Shown here piece after piece: positions 53,843 through 61,893 of a stretch of DNA of 64,000 nucleotides. Each line of letters starts with the position of its first letter. The stretch's first letter is position 1. The stretch lies in sequence record PZ019084.1; one strand, written 5' to 3'. Source of the stretch: a phage. The translations under genes were made by a program, and so were the position numbers. Under the pieces are notes generated by a model. That model saw nothing but the letters and a program-made list of their open reading frames with translations, was not told the origin of the DNA and searched no databases.

Positions 53843-54085
53843 TTATTCCTTAATTCCTAGTACTTGTTTAAAAGTCTCGTCGTAATCAAGACTTTGACCT
53901 GTTTGTTCTTTATGTTTGTATATAATATCACTTACTTCTGATAGCATATTTTTATATGAACGAGTTAAAGCAGATTTAAGCACGCTGTATCTATCAGGAA
54001 ATTTACCATGTTCATTATAATACGCTATTGCTAATTCACGGACTGCCCTTTCAGCAGTCTCCATATATTCTTTACGCTTTGTCAT
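53843..54085 (-). CDS. hypothetical protein
   Basis: 80-aa ORF. Confidence 0.5.
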
Positions 54086-54368
54086 TTTCTTCTCGGTTAA
54101 ATCGGTGTTTGCAATGACGGCATTTATAACGAAGATTACTAGTCTGCCAATGGACTAATTGAACCTGTTCAGTACCGCATTCAGGACAATTAGGAACGTT
54201 TTTAGAAGCCCTTTCGCGACGTTCAACCATAGCCATAATGGCATCCCAAGCTGGAGGTTTAAAATCTAAATCGTCAGTAACTAGCAGTCCTTTATCAAAC
54301 CCAGCGCATGGAGTCCATTCAGGAAAATCTGAAGCTTCGGCAATATCTTCTAATAGACGCTTTTTCAT
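54072..54368 (-). CDS. zinc-ribbon protein
   Basis: 98 aa with CPEC...CRHC pair. Confidence 0.5.
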
Positions 54369-55294
54369 TTCAATACCTCAATAGCATTACGTAAACCATT
54401 TGCTTTTGCATTAAGAGCTTTTAACAATTTAGTGTGTTCGGCAATCTGGGCTTCAACTTCAATCAAACGAGCATTGAGATATTCGCGTTCTTCGCTCAGG
54501 CTATCAACCTTTTCTACTTTAGGTTCTTTTACAATTGGCTTGTATGTATTAGGGTTCTTCAGTTTAATTAGAATGCGTGAGCTGTATAACATTGAACCAT
54601 TATCTTCGGTTTCGTCATACATTTCTACTACGTCCATGATTTTTAACATCATGCGGAGTTTATAAGACAACGAACGAATAGTTTTGTTGTGCTTATTAAT
54701 TTCTCTAGCTGTCATGGTGCCGAGATTACGTGAGTAATAATAAGGAACCTGGATATTAATTAATACTGATGAACCACCTGGCTTGTGTGTTACTTCATCA
54801 GCAATAACCCAGTCCTTAACATGAACTGTATTTGTACGGTCATCACCCGCGGTAAACAGTTTGCGAGCATGCTTAAAAAGCATATTCACTTGGTCATTGA
54901 ATTGACAAGCAAATTTATCAGCAAATTTAGTTTCAGGAATGGTAGATAACCAATCAGCCAAATGGGTCTTTTTAACATCGTTAACAATAGTAAATTCAAC
55001 CAAATCGGTTATAGATGTCGCAGATTTAATGAAGCTCGGCTTCATAAAGTTTTTAATGTTATCACTAGCTACAGTAGAAGATAACAGACGAGAACGTTTA
55101 AACCATTGAAGCAAATTGCCTAACGAATGAGAATAAGCGTTTTGAGTATCTTTACAGATATGATTTTCCTGGCCAACATATTGAAGGAAATCACGAAGAA
55201 TATTATTGATTATTGCTCTGTGCCCAATCTGATAATTACGATGTTTAGTAATAAGACTGTCAAAATAATCAATATAATGTTTACGAGTTTTCAT
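54365..55294 (-). CDS. hypothetical protein, member A of tandem paralog family with coiled-coil C-terminus
   Basis: 309 aa; N-terminus MKTRKHYIDYFDS resembles the next two ORFs; C-terminal heptad-like region. Confidence 0.55.
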   Translation of the reverse strand: MKTRKHYIDYFDSLITKHRNYQIGHRAIINNILRDFLQYVGQENHICKDTQNAYSHSLGNLLQWFKRSRLLSSTVASDNIKNFMKPSFIKSATSITDLVEFTIVNDVKKTHLADWLSTIPETKFADKFACQFNDQVNMLFKHARKLFTAGDDRTNTVHVKDWVIADEVTHKPGGSSVLINIQVPYYYSRNLGTMTAREINKHNKTIRSLSYKLRMMLKIMDVVEMYDETEDNGSMLYSSRILIKLKNPNTYKPIVKEPKVEKVDSLSEEREYLNARLIEVEAQIAEHTKLLKALNAKANGLRNAIEVLK

Positions 55295-55346
55295 GTTCTT
55301 CTCACTTGGTTAATGATTTATACTCCGAGCCATCCTTGGCTTTAAA

Positions 55347-56348
55347 TTACTTAATTAACTGTAAAGCTTGTTCAAGACGATCCAGACGATTAACAGATTC
55401 TTCCCAAATCCTTTTAGCCTGCTCATATTCTTTCTGCGCTTTATTAGAAATTTCTAGAGCTTCTTTATAAGCTTTTTCTAGTGCAATAACTTCTGGACGA
55501 ATTTCTACATGTTCAGGCGAATCATCAAGATTATCCATTAGTTCCTCAAGTGTAATTTCTTCTTTAGGAGTATTCACAATTTCATCACATTTTTGTTGGT
55601 AAATTTCTTTATCAGTCGGTAAATAAGCACATTTCACTTCACGAAGACTAACTACAATTTTATATCCTTCCCAACCGCATATATTCTTAAAAGGATACGT
55701 ATGAATATTTTCTACTGTTTCCATACAAAGTAATGCGGTTTCTAATTGACGAGTTATAGTGCTAGCAATTGAGAAAAATTTATTAATGTTCTTTTGGTTA
55801 GTTTCTGGTGTAAAAAATCCATAATTCACAAAAATAGATACTTTATTTTTATCAAGTTCATATTCTTTTATGATAATCATATCAGAAGCCAAAGGATGAA
55901 TTTGACGATAATCGCCATAACATAATTTAGAAGCTGATTTTAGAATCTGTCCTTTGAAAAGTCTGAAATTACTAATCCAACGACGAGTAAAAATATTCTC
56001 AGGGTCTTCTTTATTATTAAGATGATAAGAATTAACATCACCGAACCAATTATATCCTACTACATCTTTGGTTCGTTTAATTTCTTTCCCAAAATTACCA
56101 AGAATATCCCGATTAACCAAATATGAAAGAAGACGAGACTCTTTAAAGGTTTTCTTGATAACATCTTTATCTACACGGCTAGAAATTTTACGAATTTCAT
56201 GAATAAATTTAGTAGAAGAAACAATACCTGCATCAACACTATTGAGCCATTGATTGATAATAGAAATAACGCTATTTTGACCAAACATCGGTATAGCTTT
56301 ATCATCAATAACGCTGTTGAATGATTTGATATATTCGTTACGAGTCAT
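55347..56348 (-). CDS. hypothetical protein, member B of tandem paralog family
   Basis: start set at ATG 56348 (MTRNEYIKSFNS...) with SD gaggaga and early promoter; C-terminal coiled coil. Confidence 0.55.
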   Translation of the reverse strand: MTRNEYIKSFNSVIDDKAIPMFGQNSVISIINQWLNSVDAGIVSSTKFIHEIRKISSRVDKDVIKKTFKESRLLSYLVNRDILGNFGKEIKRTKDVVGYNWFGDVNSYHLNNKEDPENIFTRRWISNFRLFKGQILKSASKLCYGDYRQIHPLASDMIIIKEYELDKNKVSIFVNYGFFTPETNQKNINKFFSIASTITRQLETALLCMETVENIHTYPFKNICGWEGYKIVVSLREVKCAYLPTDKEIYQQKCDEIVNTPKEEITLEELMDNLDDSPEHVEIRPEVIALEKAYKEALEISNKAQKEYEQAKRIWEESVNRLDRLEQALQLIK

Positions 56349-56376
56349 AATAATCTCCTCAGTAGAAAGTAAGAAC

Positions 56377-56406
56377 ATTATACCACATCCTTGTGGCGAA
56401 GTAAAC
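56377..56406 (-). promoter_or_regulatory. T4-type early promoter
   Basis: minus strand GTTTAC (plus 56401-56406), 18-nt spacer with ccacatccttgtgg inverted repeat, TATAAT. Confidence 0.55.
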
Positions 56407-57434
56407 TAGTTTAGTGCATTTAGTGCATTGTTTAGTTTAGAACGTTGCTTCGTGAGATTTTTGACTTTTTCTTGAGCTTTTTCTAGCATCTTTTCAGCTT
56501 CTAACACTTCATTAGTTGCTTTAACGAGTTCATCATCTACTGCCTTGATAGACTTCTCAATCGCATCGGCATGCCATTTTTCAACAGGTTTAAGACTCGG
56601 ATTTTCAACAGGAAGAAAATTCACTTTATTGAATTTCCATGCATCATTATTACCTGAACTATACATCCAAAATTTAGGATCGTTTGATGAGTAATTGGAT
56701 AAATTTAAATTTAAGTTATCTTGCACTTCTTGCTTTTTCTCTTGTGTAACTTCGTCCTTTCTCAAAAATTCATATTTAAATGAAACGATCATATCAAGTT
56801 CATACGTTGTTGTATGTTCCCAATTTCGCTCAAAACGAGGTAAAATCTTAGACTGAACTGCAGCAACAACATCCATATACTTAAATGCTTCTGTCAACTG
56901 CGATTTAAGGCATTCGCAAATTGAAAGAGAATTTTTTGTATTAGGTTTAAAGCTAATTCGTGCAGTTCTGTTATTTTCTTTTAATGGTCTTACTTCCATC
57001 TGAAGAGTATAACCATCAAATTTCAGATTCTTTAAGTTAATATCAGAACCTTTTAATCGACTCGCAGTTGATAAAATTTGCTTTAATTGTCTACGGAACA
57101 GAGCAATAAATCTCCATTCAATACGATAATGATTTGGATTGAAAAATCCAGATAATAAATCGACCTTACTTTGACCAACGCCTTGAACAAATAGAGGATT
57201 TTTATAATCAATAGTTTTACAGAAATCTGTGAGCTGCTCACGAGCCGTCATTTGTGTAATATACCCCGCTTTACTAAAATTACTCACCCATTCACTGCTA
57301 TTTAGATATTTAAAATGATGAATAGCACGATTAACTTTATCAGGGTCTAAATTATTTTGACACAAAAATGTCATAACATCACGAGTATAGCTGGCATTAC
57401 GAACCATATCTTCAATTTGAGAACGAGTTTTCAT
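56406..57434 (-). CDS. hypothetical protein, member C of tandem paralog family
   Basis: 342 aa; N-terminus MKTRSQIEDMVRN; C-terminal coiled coil. Confidence 0.55.
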   Translation of the reverse strand: MKTRSQIEDMVRNASYTRDVMTFLCQNNLDPDKVNRAIHHFKYLNSSEWVSNFSKAGYITQMTAREQLTDFCKTIDYKNPLFVQGVGQSKVDLLSGFFNPNHYRIEWRFIALFRRQLKQILSTASRLKGSDINLKNLKFDGYTLQMEVRPLKENNRTARISFKPNTKNSLSICECLKSQLTEAFKYMDVVAAVQSKILPRFERNWEHTTTYELDMIVSFKYEFLRKDEVTQEKKQEVQDNLNLNLSNYSSNDPKFWMYSSGNNDAWKFNKVNFLPVENPSLKPVEKWHADAIEKSIKAVDDELVKATNEVLEAEKMLEKAQEKVKNLTKQRSKLNNALNALN

Positions 57435-57442
57435 GGTGTTCC

Positions 57443-58354
57443 TTAAGATTTAAGTAAATCAACAATTTTAATTAACTTTTCACGCTCAGATTTAGCTTTA
57501 CTACTCAATCCAGATAGTCTGAAAATTTCATCGTCATATTGTTGAATAGAAATATTCAGCTCTTCAATCTGCTTATTAAAATAATCAATTTGTTCAGAAT
57601 GTTTTTCGTTACTACGAACTGGTACAGGTTTTGTAGGCAATGTAGTTGAACTGGATTCATCCGGGCGATAAATTAAAATACAGCTTGAACCAATAGGGCA
57701 TTTTTCACCAGATGAATATTCTAATGTTCCAGCTTCTTTTAAAACTTCAAAAGCTAAACAGAGATGATGACCCATATTAACATAATCTGTAGAGTGAGCT
57801 CTGATGTAATAATCATCTCCACGAATACTAAATTTAAAGCATTTAAGGTCTTCTGTATTATTGGTCTTAAAAATCATTTGTTTATCTAGACCTTTAGCTA
57901 ATCGAGCGCCTAATGCTAATAGTCGTCGTTGATTTTCCCACAAATCTGCGATCATTTGATCGAATGATAATTTTGGCATCAGTCGACCATAAAGGTCATA
58001 TCCTTTATTGTAATTACGAAGAATTTCACTCGCGTTAATACGAGACAATGCTCCAATTTTATTAAGGGCTTTCATAATGCGATTAGATAAACTCATTCCA
58101 GACCCATTTGTTCGCTGTAAATGTTTTTCTAATCCAAATCCAATATCAACTTTAAACTTATCTAAAATTTCTGCATGAACATCTCTGTCGATAACATTCA
58201 AATCCAAAGTTGAGTTAAATCTATGAAAAAATTTATCTGGCTCTCCACGACGAAGTACAGTCCATTCATTCATCATTTTTTTATTAACTAAAGATTTAAT
58301 TACTGCATTGACATTATTAATTACTACTGACATATTTTCCTCACTCAATTTCAA
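57443..58354 (-). CDS. hypothetical protein, member D (more divergent) with coiled-coil C-terminus
   Basis: 303-aa ORF contiguous with A-C. Confidence 0.5.
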   Translation of the reverse strand: MKLSEENMSVVINNVNAVIKSLVNKKMMNEWTVLRRGEPDKFFHRFNSTLDLNVIDRDVHAEILDKFKVDIGFGLEKHLQRTNGSGMSLSNRIMKALNKIGALSRINASEILRNYNKGYDLYGRLMPKLSFDQMIADLWENQRRLLALGARLAKGLDKQMIFKTNNTEDLKCFKFSIRGDDYYIRAHSTDYVNMGHHLCLAFEVLKEAGTLEYSSGEKCPIGSSCILIYRPDESSSTTLPTKPVPVRSNEKHSEQIDYFNKQIEELNISIQQYDDEIFRLSGLSSKAKSEREKLIKIVDLLKS

Positions 58355-58803: not shown

Positions 58804-59331
58804 TTATGCGAGTACCGTCTTTAACCGTTCTTCAAACTTCCGAAGAGTATTTTGGCGTTCAGCTCTTTGCTTTTTGTAAGTTTCAATACGCTCTGAAATG
58901 AGAGTGTATCGTTCATTTACTGATTCTTTCATAAAATCAGGAATTTCACGAGAAGCTTTAATCTCGTCAAATTTATCAATAACAGCTTGCTCTTCAGCAA
59001 TTAAGTTATCATACATTAAAATATCTTTCTTGATGAACTCAATATCTTCTTGAGTTACACGAGATAATTTAGATGCTTTATCCTTTTTGTACTGTTCATT
59101 AGTATCACGAGACCAGTGTAATGTACGATTTTTATTCGTATTTTTGTAAATTTCTACAATACCAATCTCATCAATAATAACGATCCAATTCCAACGGGAT
59201 TTGTAAATTTGTCCTCCATCAACAGTGATTTCACCTCCGATTGAGATGTCGTTAAAGAACTTGCTTTGTGCTTCAGATTTAAATTTACCATCGTTGTAAT
59301 TTACCAAGTTGAAAATATCTTTAGCGTTCAT
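58804..59331 (-). CDS. hypothetical protein
   Basis: 175 aa; start follows early promoter cassette and SD ggagg. Confidence 0.55.
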   Translation of the reverse strand: MNAKDIFNLVNYNDGKFKSEAQSKFFNDISIGGEITVDGGQIYKSRWNWIVIIDEIGIVEIYKNTNKNRTLHWSRDTNEQYKKDKASKLSRVTQEDIEFIKKDILMYDNLIAEEQAVIDKFDEIKASREIPDFMKESVNERYTLISERIETYKKQRAERQNTLRKFEERLKTVLA

Positions 59332-59795: not shown

Positions 59796-60764
59796 TTATT
59801 TCAGAAGAGTAACCTCAGCGATTTCTTCCCAACCGTTTTTATCGGTCATAATAAAGTCAGCAAGATAAAGAGCAGTACGCAGTGAAACATTGCGTAAACG
59901 ATTAACATTAACTTTCATCCATGATAATGCTTTATAAGTTTCTTCATCAGAAAGACCGCGCTTTTGCATCATGTCAGTTGAAAGAATAACATCTTCAACC
60001 CTGACCATAATTTCTTCATTAGTGTGAACACCCAAATCCAAATAAACCGAGCGGGACACTAATGCTTGTAAATGTGGAGCAAGTTTAGTACCACGGTCTA
60101 ATTCGCGGTCAATGTCAACGTTTGTGATAAAAACAATCGTTCCTTTAAATTCAAACTCACGGTCAATGCCTTTTTCTTCTAAGTAAGAAGACGCAGTGCT
60201 CCAGCAGACTTTACGGGTCTCTCCAGTGTCCAGAGCGGCTTTTAGAAGATTAAGAATGTCCATATCAGAGAAAACATCCACATCATCAATCAAAAGGACA
60301 GAATTCTCTTCACGATTATTCCAAAGCTGCTCATAAAGACCAATACCAGAGATTTTACCATTAATACTTTTATATTCAATGTATCCAATATCATTTGCTT
60401 TATTTAAAGCTTTATCTAAAGAATACGTTTTACCAATACCTGCTGCGCCAGAGATAATCAATGAACGAATATTTCCGTTAATAATACCATTCGTCATCAT
60501 TCCCATAACATTAAATCTTTTATTAATGCGGGTTTTCATATCTTCATACGATTCTTTAACTTCCTCAACTTTTACACCATCATATGAAATATCTGATTTG
60601 TAAACCCAAACACCGCGACGTTTACCGTCAATTTCAACAAAAACTTTACCATCTCCTTGTGCATCTACCGGAGCATTATCTGGGAACCATTCGCCTAAGA
60701 GCTCAAAAGTTCCAGAGATTTCTTTACCGAAGTAGATACCCTTATTGATAGTTACAGTTTTCAT
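59796..60764 (-). CDS. P-loop NTPase (AAA-like ATPase) of unknown function
   Basis: start set at ATG 60764 (MKTVTINKG...); Walker A GAAGIGKT and Walker B VLLIDDVD; ORF-track form reads through the promoter. Confidence 0.6.
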   Translation of the reverse strand: MKTVTINKGIYFGKEISGTFELLGEWFPDNAPVDAQGDGKVFVEIDGKRRGVWVYKSDISYDGVKVEEVKESYEDMKTRINKRFNVMGMMTNGIINGNIRSLIISGAAGIGKTYSLDKALNKANDIGYIEYKSINGKISGIGLYEQLWNNREENSVLLIDDVDVFSDMDILNLLKAALDTGETRKVCWSTASSYLEEKGIDREFEFKGTIVFITNVDIDRELDRGTKLAPHLQALVSRSVYLDLGVHTNEEIMVRVEDVILSTDMMQKRGLSDEETYKALSWMKVNVNRLRNVSLRTALYLADFIMTDKNGWEEIAEVTLLK

Positions 60765-60796
60765 TTTATTCTCCAAATCCGTATCAGTTGATAGTT

Positions 60797-60829
60797 GTAT
60801 AGTACCATAAAGCTTTATGCTTGTAAACC
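60797..60829 (-). promoter_or_regulatory. T4-type early promoter
   Basis: minus strand GTTTAC (plus 60823-60828), 18-nt spacer, TACTAT; cassette nearly identical to the motA promoter region. Confidence 0.55.
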
Positions 60830-60852
60830 GTTTTGTGAAAAAATTTTGAAAT

Positions 60853-60877
60853 AAAAAAAGGGAGCCCGAAGGCTCCC
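60853..60877 (-). terminator. rho-independent terminator after nucleotidyltransferase gene
   Basis: gggagcccgaaggctccc hairpin 3 nt after stop, followed on the minus strand by a U-run (plus aaaaaaa). Confidence 0.55.
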
Positions 60878-60879
60878 TA

Positions 60880-61893
60880 TCATTTATAATAACTTCGGTG
60901 GTTTTCAAGATAAACCCTCTCAAGGAAGTCATCCCAGAAACCCATGTCTACTTTTTGCTGCATACCGTTCTTAGAAGCTTCAATGGATGCTGCTTCTACT
61001 TGATCGACCACATCTTCCAAAAACTCTTGAACAGTTTTAAATGGATGTTTACCCAGCTTCACGTCGAGAATAAATGGAGCGTCTTGAAGTGGATAGACTA
61101 AGTCACCAGTTTTGTAAATTTCCAATAGTTGGAGTCCACCACGACAAGCATGACTCAGAGCTTTCCAGTCAATGCCCTCATTCGCTTCAGCCTTACGAGC
61201 ACGTTCGCCATATTCAGCATCTAATTTATTCAGTGACTGTTTAAGCTCGATAAGAGAAAGCGTTGTTTGATATTTACGACCCAACACAGTGTAGAACGTT
61301 TGTGGGCCTGTTTTCTCATGATTATGGAATACCCATTCACAGAATTCGTTCTCTGGAAGACGATGCTTAATATCTTCAACTTTAGTTCGACGAAGTCTAT
61401 CAGGGATTCCTTCTTGATAATCAACCCACTGATCGGGGATTTGATTAACTACTTTCAATACATCACGCAATGCGGCCAAACGAGAACCCTTGACGCCGTA
61501 TTTAGAAGCTTGCTTGCGAACATATCCTAAATAGGATTTCATGTTAGTCGTATAAAAACGAGAACGATTGTCTTGAATAAACTTCCATACATCAGGCAAA
61601 TCAGATTTAACTACCAGTTCAGGTGGAGTGTGAAGCATATCCAATGCTACAGTTTCACCATCTGCTGCTAATTTAAAGAAATATTTAAGACTATATAGTT
61701 CATGGTCAATATCATCTTTAGTGTTTTTAGATGATGTATTGTTAGTGTTTTTGCTCATATGCTCTTTAACATTTCCGATAAGAATATCGCGAGCAGGAGG
61801 AACAAAGATTTCTTTAAAATCTACATCAGATTCTGGAGTAGAAGTTCCATAAAGATGACTACCAAAATAGCTTTTCATTACTGTTTTCATCAT
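60880..61893 (-). CDS. pol-beta superfamily nucleotidyltransferase-like protein
   Basis: 337 aa; N-terminal GS-x10-DVD motif (FGSHLYGTSTPESDVDF) and downstream acidic residue (ALDMLH region); helical C-terminal domain. Confidence 0.55.
   Translation of the reverse strand: MMKTVMKSYFGSHLYGTSTPESDVDFKEIFVPPARDILIGNVKEHMSKNTNNTSSKNTKDDIDHELYSLKYFFKLAADGETVALDMLHTPPELVVKSDLPDVWKFIQDNRSRFYTTNMKSYLGYVRKQASKYGVKGSRLAALRDVLKVVNQIPDQWVDYQEGIPDRLRRTKVEDIKHRLPENEFCEWVFHNHEKTGPQTFYTVLGRKYQTTLSLIELKQSLNKLDAEYGERARKAEANEGIDWKALSHACRGGLQLLEIYKTGDLVYPLQDAPFILDVKLGKHPFKTVQEFLEDVVDQVEAASIEASKNGMQQKVDMGFWDDFLERVYLENHRSYYK

Follow-up and report, generated by a model that had tools for sequence, protein, structure and literature searches.

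The question raised by this locus is whether four adjacent phage genes of similar layout share an ancestor and, if so, what their products do. The window analysed here is a 64,000-nucleotide stretch of phage DNA (sequence record PZ019084.1, one strand); positions refer to it unless another locus is named. An earlier note, made from the letters alone, had pointed to four consecutive minus-strand genes at 54365-58354, where open reading frames (ORFs) of 309, 343, 342 and 303 amino acids (aa) are indeed present, and had taken them for tandem diverged paralogs of shared architecture, possibly a set of inhibitors that have diverged to act on different targets or defences of the host. We find that they correspond to nrdC.3, nrdC.4, nrdC.5 and nrdC.6 of phage T4. 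Judging from profile comparisons, they are almost certainly ancient paralogs belonging to one superfamily, and the third of them very probably acts against the host defence protein Dsr1.

The window comes from a T4-like phage (Tequatrovirus). The 3,990-base region holding the four genes matched 657 phage records, almost all of them Tequatrovirus, with up to 97.6% identity. Genes 1 to 4 were named nrdC.3, nrdC.4, nrdC.5 and nrdC.6 because the T4 annotation, which places nrdC.2, nrdC.5 and nrdC.8 around the array, has it between nrdC.2 and nrdC.7 and gives the coding sequence of gene 3 the name NrdC.5. Compared with the nrdC-mobD accessory region of T4, the genes agree both in identity and in their order between nrdC.2 and nrdC.7; protein identity to the T4 counterpart is 60% for NrdC.3, 95.6% for NrdC.4, 93.9% for NrdC.5 and 97.6% for NrdC.6. 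Genes 1 and 2 are covered by PF26897 (Phage_T4_Y04OP) and phrog_1435, the latter profile being matched as a whole; PF26897, a newer Pfam family whose name refers to the two proteins, is assigned by precomputation to the homologs of gene 2, as well as to a fusion carrying the nrdC.3 C-terminal part. Gene 3 matches PF23882 (DUF7235) with 427.5 bits, for a cut-off of 30, over profile positions 1-307 of 307. The family of gene 4 is PF26899 (Phage_T4_Y05B) or phrog_2257, with PF26899 assigned to 105 of 105 homologs.

Common descent was examined by all-against-all and HMM-HMM (hidden Markov model) comparison, as the earlier note had proposed, and similarity beyond chance was obtained with shuffle controls. 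By BLASTP, nrdC.3 and nrdC.4 alone recognise each other (24% identity over 318 aa, expectation value (E) 1e-6), and the remaining pairs among the four array proteins gave E of at least 0.26. Family alignments were built from non-redundant database matches together with the orthologs of Mosigvirus JS09, Gaprivervirus VR25, Dhakavirus Bp7, phage NC-G and a metagenome contig. Shallow first-round profiles were marginal (49% for nrdC.4-nrdC.5, 31% for nrdC.3-nrdC.6 and 5% for nrdC.5-nrdC.6), and the comparisons rose only once the Mosigvirus, Gaprivervirus, Dhakavirus and metagenome sequences had joined the alignments. The joint nrdC.3+4 profile then matched the nrdC.5 profile with 94.3% probability (E 1.1e-7) over 143 columns, situated in the globular part and not in the coiled coil. 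The score of this match, 60.6, compares with 19.8 +/- 3.0 for the block-shuffle null (z-score (z) about 13) and 15.0 for a reversed profile.

The link to nrdC.6 came from more distant phages. The region downstream of nrdC.11 was taken from Karamvirus CC31, Tegunavirus phiR1-RT and one Acinetobacter phage; the nrdC.6 HMM picks CC31p082 (E 6e-8) and phiR1-RT g087 (E 4e-5). Immediately upstream of nrdC.2, where T4 has nrdC.3, the Karamvirus genome carries CC31p082. A bridging profile made of five Karamvirus and Tegunavirus sequences matches nrdC.3+4 (95.8% probability, E 8e-9, z 16.9 against shuffles), nrdC.5 (95.0%, E 3.9e-8, z 10.3) and nrdC.6 (95.2%, E 2.6e-8, z 13.6). Its alignment with the nrdC.6 family extends over 201-203 columns, mostly outside the coiled coil, with E from 3e-8 to 6e-8. 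When hhalign was repeated with different alignments, the bridging profile gave 94.7% for nrdC.6, 89.4% for nrdC.5 and 48.7% for nrdC.4 only, and a profile restricted to Karamvirus gave z of 8-10 against each of the three families. As a control, the unrelated neighbours NrdC.10 and NrdC.11 gave E of at least 0.06. Since a single bridging family matches all three families, the four genes are grouped in one superfamily, nrdC.6 being included transitively. The idea of tandem diverged paralogs therefore holds at the profile level, directly between nrdC.3+4 and nrdC.5 and through the bridging family for nrdC.6, with the profile-profile similarity lying mostly outside the coiled coil.

The superfamily was found here only in T4-like phages (Straboviridae). 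Among the 58 window ORFs of at least 120 aa, the array genes are mutual best cross-family HMM matches in most comparisons, and no further member was detected. An exhaustive HMM search with the nrdC.5 family returned 13 matches in 1.8 billion representative proteins, one of which is a spurious repeat protein, and added just two divergent relatives. When the NrdC.6 model was run through Foldseek, seven further T4-like phages yielded uncharacterised proteins of 300-335 aa that match it over the full length (E 6e-7 to 3e-3); those outside its own family are assignable to none of the nrdC.3, nrdC.4 or nrdC.5 families. PDB sequence searches, NCBIfam and PADLOC returned nothing relevant for the array proteins.

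The shared architecture, as modelled, begins with a variable helical segment at the N-terminus. A conserved helix pair comes next, then a basic helix of some length and a small beta-beta-alpha-beta-beta unit; a disordered linker, again variable, leads to the C-terminal coiled coil of about 45-55 residues. Four collinear motifs occur in the same order in all pairwise profile alignments and in a 43-sequence superfamily alignment (Table 1); motif 1 has the consensus h...h....hLs...A...L..h. Motif 2 corresponds to the R/K-rich middle motif of the earlier note and proves to be a conserved helix in all four proteins (FACQFNDQVNMLFKHARKLF, WISNFRLFKGQILKSASKL, FIALFRRQLKQILSTASRLK and MIADLWENQRRLLALGARLAKG); it is helical in both AlphaFold2 (AF2) models, at residues 100-126 of gene 3 and residues 124-133 and 135-145 of gene 4. 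The NrdC.6 model has a predicted local distance difference test (pLDDT) of 79 and a predicted template-modelling score of 0.66. The NrdC.5 model, made from a shallow alignment, is poor (pLDDT 52.9). Common to the two is the order of elements: N-terminal helices, a helix pair (motif 1), the long basic helix (motif 2), two strands, a helix (motif 3) and two strands, followed by a low-confidence linker and then one long or two C-terminal helices. The heptad-rich tail that had been read in all four genes is borne out for three: heptad scores exceed shuffles in gene 1 (p 0.005), gene 3 (p <0.005) and gene 4 (p 0.04), and AF2 places long C-terminal helices at residues 283-341 of gene 3 and at residues 243-272 and 278-295 of gene 4. 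For gene 2 the periodicity was not significant against shuffles with the crude score used, but its tail, like the three others, ends in +L...h..LK.

Some structural resemblances were noted besides. Foldseek with the NrdC.5 model matched two T4-like phage proteins of like length, from Salmonella phage Melville and Erwinia phage Cronus, and many phage tail completion or tail terminator proteins, the latter aligning with central residues about 140-220 over about 90-140 columns of this low-confidence model. These matches are unreliable in view of the pLDDT of the model and were left unused, and the NrdC.6 model gave no tail completion or terminator matches in Foldseek. Residues about 31-86 of nrdC.3 (55037-55204) show sub-threshold matches to the N-terminal SAM-like domain of tyrosine recombinases (Phage_int_SAM_1 of Pfam, E 0.075; tyrosine recombinase/XerD of NCBIfam, E 0.0017-0.024), a resemblance probably due to chance. 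The idea that the array proteins mimic DNA was rejected because they are basic or near neutral.

Comparison across related phages, also suggested beforehand, gave one, three or four copies according to genus. Tequatrovirus has four copies. Mosigvirus has three, in the order nrdC.6-like, nrdC.5-like, nrdC.3-like; three are also found in Gaprivervirus, Dhakavirus, NC-G and the metagenome contig, in the order nrdC.6 - small ORF - nrdC.5 - nrdC.4. Karamvirus and Tegunavirus appear to have a single copy; in phiR1-RT there is also a marginal candidate for a second. A tblastn search with the alleles of the window detected them in Tequatrovirus, Mosigvirus, Gaprivervirus and Dhakavirus alone. The division into three families is old, and its order is kept across the four multi-copy genera; only the nrdC.3/nrdC.4 duplication and a replacement of the nrdC.3 allele look comparatively recent. 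The candidate in phiR1-RT, g098 (L009:11224-12210, 328 aa), aligns collinearly with the profile of the bridging family over 115 columns, with marginal significance (E 3e-3), and may be a second, very divergent member in Tegunavirus. Apart from it, none of the other ORFs of medium size close to nrdC.11 in CC31, CkP1, phiR1-RT and Acinetobacter phage DLP2 was a detectable member. The small ORF between nrdC.6 and nrdC.5 encodes 62-71 aa; it is absent from the window, where the gap measures 8 bases.

Members of the array are also lost, fused and exchanged. In phage ACG-C40 (L003:5805-6216), a deletion has kept nrdC.6 and left a 71-aa nrdC.5 remnant and the nrdC.3 tail. A database protein of 299 aa (P0056) joins the middle of nrdC.5 to the C-terminal part of nrdC.3 with removal of nrdC.4, at the junction ...KFNKVN|MLFKHARK.... 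In the window itself, the nrdC.2-nrdC.3 segment (54072-55294) is divergent from T4: the nrdC.2 protein is 78% identical, compared with 92-100% for neighbouring genes, and the synonymous divergence (dS) from T4 reaches about 1.1 in nrdC.3 and 0.57 in nrdC.2 for 0.1-0.3 in most other genes of the region. The window NrdC.3 is 76.5% identical to NrdC.3 of Mosigvirus JS09. Because it is closer to Mosigvirus than to T4 and dS is raised, nrdC.3 with part of nrdC.2 was interpreted as an allele replacement, which suggests that the nrdC.3 allele was exchanged between genera.

Other rearrangements were seen around the array. nrdC.7 adjoins nrdC.2 in Mosigvirus JS09 (L002:9253-9666) and Karamvirus CC31 (L008:17365-17793) and follows nrdC.6 in the window and T4; since its position differs, the array region has been rearranged between genera. 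The NrdC.6 homolog of Shigella phage Sf25 (P0122, 378 aa) repeats an internal stretch of about 82 residues in tandem (IRAHSTDY...NKQIEEL twice); the repeated stretch runs from the second half of the central unit through the linker into the beginning of the coiled coil. In the same phage, the match to nrdC.5 includes about 250 additional bases. The duplication in P0122 may be an assembly artefact.

Selection was estimated from pooled ratios of nonsynonymous to synonymous divergence (dN/dS) in six Tequatrovirus genomes. The ratios are 0.35 for nrdC.3, 0.22 for nrdC.4, 0.16 for nrdC.5 and 0.11 for nrdC.6, compared with 0.01-0.08 for the flanking genes endoVII, nrdC, nrdC.1, nrdC.8 and nrdC.10, and 0.19 for nrdC.7. 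The array genes thus evolve faster than most of their neighbours, yet under purifying selection overall. Within the genus, variation peaks around residues 20-60 in the three proteins examined (3/3); in NrdC.5, a second hot region lies at residues 180-280 and hardly any change is seen in the core, residues 60-180. The arms-race diversification put forward in the earlier note is supported weakly: dN/dS is roughly 3-10 times that of most flanking genes, but it stays within 0.11-0.35, not above 1, and the split is an old one in conserved order.

What the proteins do is best approached through nrdC.5. In T4, nrdC.5 is described as an early gene that is sufficient in trans against Dsr1. An evolved T4 deletion clone plates neither on Escherichia coli ECOR17 nor on MG1655 carrying ECOR17 dsr1; the clone, which has no nrdC.5, plates on MG1655 and on ECOR17 lacking dsr1 and fails only with Dsr1, and nrdC.5 on a plasmid restores plating of the deletion mutant on MG1655 with dsr1 (Srikant et al. 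2022, eLife, PMC9391042). The sensor of Dsr1 is a tetratricopeptide repeat (TPR) domain, also found in Avs7, and is triggered by the phage major capsid protein in co-expression screens (2026 preprint, PMC12803255). As for the window's gene 3, we are confident that it has the same anti-Dsr1 role. The proposal of variant inhibitors of different defences thus agrees with published work for nrdC.5 against Dsr1. Its extension to nrdC.3, nrdC.4 and nrdC.6 follows from homology: because they are paralogs of the anti-Dsr1 gene nrdC.5, they become candidate blockers of other defences, a role for which our confidence falls a little short of even. Fitting such a role are the plating of the clone without nrdC.5 on standard hosts free of Dsr1, the viable isolates that lack some members, and the fast evolution of the variable segments.

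Counter-defence is the likeliest of the functions considered, and a possible sequence of events can be drawn. The family proteins would be made early in infection and would oligomerise through the C-terminal coiled coil, which could give avidity; a host immune protein would be held inactive by stoichiometric binding to their globular part. By analogy, NrdC.5 made early would bind Dsr1, an NADase (NAD-degrading enzyme) of the SIR2 type, and hold it off before the capsid protein appears. Each of nrdC.3, nrdC.4 and nrdC.6 is predicted to neutralise a different, other host system. The direct-binding step is tentative, and we would give rather less than half of our confidence to it. For the counter-defence explanation taken as a whole, with ancient paralogs that bind host immune proteins early and stoichiometrically, belief and doubt are about evenly balanced.

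Several points weigh against this explanation. Direct profile comparison did not join nrdC.6 significantly to either of the other families (score 22.7 against nrdC.5, null 16.2 +/- 2.6; score 22.6 against nrdC.3+4, null 20.7 +/- 4.2), so that its membership rests on the bridging family and the shared architecture; within the bridging profile, in which they were merged, Karamvirus and Tegunavirus sequences are themselves weakly linked (41.6% probability). Because the NrdC.5 model is poor, the structural equivalence of NrdC.5 and NrdC.6 extends no further than the order of their secondary-structure elements. The isoelectric point is 9.0-9.4 in three of the array proteins (gene 2, 6.6), and a nucleic-acid or host-machinery target is possible. 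The dN/dS values below 1 and the gene order fixed across four genera are unlike a rapid arms race. Finally, the published evidence on nrdC.5 is genetic, and its anti-Dsr1 phenotype could be indirect.

This last point leads to the alternative that survives best, namely that the family serves general host takeover or a nucleic-acid function, through a host protein, RNA or DNA contacted by the basic helix, and is not dedicated to counter-defence, the anti-Dsr1 effect being indirect. The basic character of three of the four proteins and the positive charge of motif 2 would suit it, as would purifying selection and a neighbourhood of nucleotide-metabolism and RNA-repair-like genes (nrdC, the AAA-type ATPase NrdC.10 and the RlaP nucleotidyltransferase NrdC.11). 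It is difficult to reconcile with the T4 clone without nrdC.5, which fails solely when Dsr1 is present, and with natural isolates that do without some members; the array moreover evolves faster than most neighbours, nrdC.3 alleles are exchanged across genera, and no nucleic-acid-binding family was matched in Pfam, NCBIfam or PDB. We consider this alternative unlikely.

Less likely still is that the paralogs are subunits of one hetero-oligomeric complex, pairing through their C-terminal coiled coils, with the array encoding a single machine. A machine of this kind would account for the constant order nrdC.6 - nrdC.5 - nrdC.4/3 in Tequatrovirus, Mosigvirus, Gaprivervirus and Dhakavirus, for extreme C-termini (+L...h..LK) that are among the most similar parts across families, and for tails that vary less within the genus than the N-terminal segment or the NrdC.5 linker. 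Against it, nrdC.5 alone in trans rescues the T4 mutant on Dsr1 cells, an argument tempered by the fact that the supplement of PMC9391042 leaves the limits of the evo 3 deletion unstated, and other paralogs possibly remain in the mutant. Karamvirus and Tegunavirus, with their apparently single copy, and viable isolates without some members (ACG-C40; the nrdC.5-nrdC.3 fusion without nrdC.4) also speak against it. It is very improbable that the four are not all homologous and that nrdC.6 at least owes its helical N-terminal part and coiled-coil tail to convergence: the direct nrdC.6 comparisons and the three separate families of Pfam and PHROGs would allow it, but the bridging profile matches nrdC.6 and both other families, the four motifs and the secondary-structure elements follow the same order, and the Karamvirus homolog sits in the slot of T4 nrdC.3.

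Returning to counter-defence, a broader version can be formulated, which we regard as speculative and rather doubtful. The superfamily might be a Straboviridae-wide toolkit of early, coiled-coil-oligomerised sensor blockers, in which every paralog would be directed at another bacterial pattern-recognition protein (Dsr1, Avs-like proteins and others) and would occupy the repeat domain by which that protein binds its ligand, a structural protein made late by the phage, with the variable N-terminal segment and the central unit setting specificity. If this were true, T4 alone would carry three further inhibitors of E. coli defences.

Already known are the genes, their assignment to three database families, the kinship of nrdC.3 with nrdC.4 and the phenotype of nrdC.5. 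New relative to the papers and libraries searched are the joining of these families into one superfamily, the inclusion of single-copy homologs from other T4-like genera and the functional prediction for three T4 ORFs. In T4, a reference phage with many genes still lacking an assigned function, nrdC.3, nrdC.4 and nrdC.6 now become specific counter-defence candidates, as do the related genes of Karamvirus and Tegunavirus and, probably, of further T4-like genera, and the prediction is directly testable in the best-studied phage. The conserved core and the variable regions offer a guide to how NrdC.5 stops Dsr1.

The features of the array are collected in Table 1. Two of the four ORFs most likely start downstream of the codon first retained. 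For nrdC.4 the most likely start is the ATG at 56348, preceded by the Shine-Dalgarno sequence GAGGAG; it was moved there because the upstream ATG (56378) falls within an early-type promoter-like site, because of this Shine-Dalgarno sequence and because orthologs have 333 aa, the length at which most are annotated. For nrdC.6 it is the ATG at 58333, preceded by GAGGA, instead of the TTG at 58354. The corrected starts give MKTRK, MTRNE and MKTRS in three of the four genes, in agreement with the M(K)TR beginnings reported for three of them. The promoter-like site has 10/12 consensus matches plus the TG and is a consensus match only; in the consensus scan, the regional count of such sites is no higher than in shuffled sequence.

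Table 1. Coordinates of the array genes, their shared motifs and associated features (window positions, except for the small ORF)
Feature	Position	Strand	Details
Gene 1, nrdC.3 ortholog, divergent allele	54365-55294	minus	309 aa; T4 nrdC.3 slot between nrdC.2 and nrdC.4; phrog_1435 E 1e-115
Gene 2, nrdC.4 ortholog	55347-56348	minus	333 aa; mechanical ORF to 56378 (343 aa); phrog_1435 E 1e-166
Gene 3, nrdC.5 ortholog, Pfam DUF7235	56406-57434	minus	342 aa; PF23882 E 4e-128
Gene 4, nrdC.6 ortholog	57443-58333	minus	296 aa; TTG ORF to 58354 (303 aa); phrog_2257 E 1e-151
Sigma-70 / T4 early-type promoter-like site	56405-56377	minus	TTTACT-N17-TGgTATAAT, extended TG; nrdC.5-nrdC.4 gap; consensus scan
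Motif 1, gene 1	55043-55114	minus	residues 61-84, LLQWFKRSRLLSSTVASDNIKNFM
Motif 1 equivalents	gene 2 56088-56162; gene 3 57219-57293; gene 4 58007-58081	minus	
Motif 2 (R/K-rich middle, long helix), gene 1	54842-54913	minus	residues 128-151
Motif 2 equivalents	gene 2 55911-55979; gene 3 57042-57110; gene 4 57884-57955	minus	
Motif 3, gene 1	54617-54670	minus	residues 209-226; helix within beta-beta-alpha-beta-beta unit, L..AL..Md.V
Motif 3 equivalents	gene 2 55704-55757; gene 3 56856-56909; gene 4 57722-57775	minus	
C-terminal coiled-coil tail, gene 1	54368-54496	minus	residues 267-309
Coiled-coil tail equivalents	gene 2 55350-55499; gene 3 56409-56576; gene 4 57446-57604	minus	
Small ORF in nrdC.6/nrdC.5 gap	L005:4838-5050; L006:3766-3981; L007:3603-3791; L004:5777-5992		

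The genes flanking the array in the window are endonuclease VII, pin, nrdC (glutaredoxin), nrdC.1, nrdC.2, nrdC.7 (membrane protein), nrdC.8, nrdC.10 and nrdC.11. NrdC.8 (175 aa, 58804-59331) also has a heptad-rich tail (score 0.76, reached by 0/200 shuffles) and shows no profile similarity to the four-gene family. In the nrdC.10-nrdC.11 segment (59796-61893), NrdC.10 has weak matches to AAA/STAND-type NTPases and NrdC.11 matches the RlaP 'RNA repair pathway' nucleotidyltransferase (E 3e-11); nrdC.11 occurs in 1,518 phage records from many T4-like genera. Between nrdC.10 and nrdC.11, at 60859-60878, is a strong terminator-like hairpin whose GC-rich stem of 8 bp is followed by a run of T.

Public labels for these genes call for correction. 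Several hundred GenBank records call some or all array genes 'thioredoxin', a label seen on nrdC.1 to nrdC.11 and apparently propagated from the gene name nrdC. It was rejected for the array, since the four proteins have no Pfam or NCBIfam thioredoxin or glutaredoxin match and no CxxC in their translations, and it constitutes a mis-annotation throughout those records. The label 'tail sheath stabilizer and completion protein', given to nrdC.5 in the T6 record, was rejected as well.

Four comparisons place the array among known systems. The closest is T4 NrdC.5 itself (Y05A; DUF7235; PMC9391042), of which gene 3 is the ortholog over its full length and in the same slot, genes 1, 2 and 4 being distant paralogs; that work reports a genetic phenotype for NrdC.5 only, with no mechanism, structure or link to nrdC.3, nrdC.4 and nrdC.6. 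In the literature searched, neither the window's nrdC.5 allele itself nor anti-Dsr1 data on nrdC.3, nrdC.4 or nrdC.6 were found. Among the libraries, each array protein is a clear member of one family (Pfam PF26897, PF23882 and PF26899; PHROGs 1435, 2351 and 2257), to which no function is assigned there; Pfam and PHROGs keep three families, which are joined here by way of the Karamvirus and Tegunavirus homologs. DSAD1 offers a functional analogy: this small phage protein counteracts the sirtuin defence DSR2, a SIR2 NADase activated by a phage structural protein. No sequence or fold similarity to it was found for the array proteins. In genetic behaviour, the nearest parallels are dmd, tifA and adfA (a proposed anti-toxin-antitoxin island) and the internal proteins IPI and IPIII, non-essential T4 accessory genes that widen the host range by neutralising specific host systems and that deletions readily remove (PMC9391042); dmd, tifA and adfA are described there as neighbouring genes with separate targets and are not presented as paralogs.

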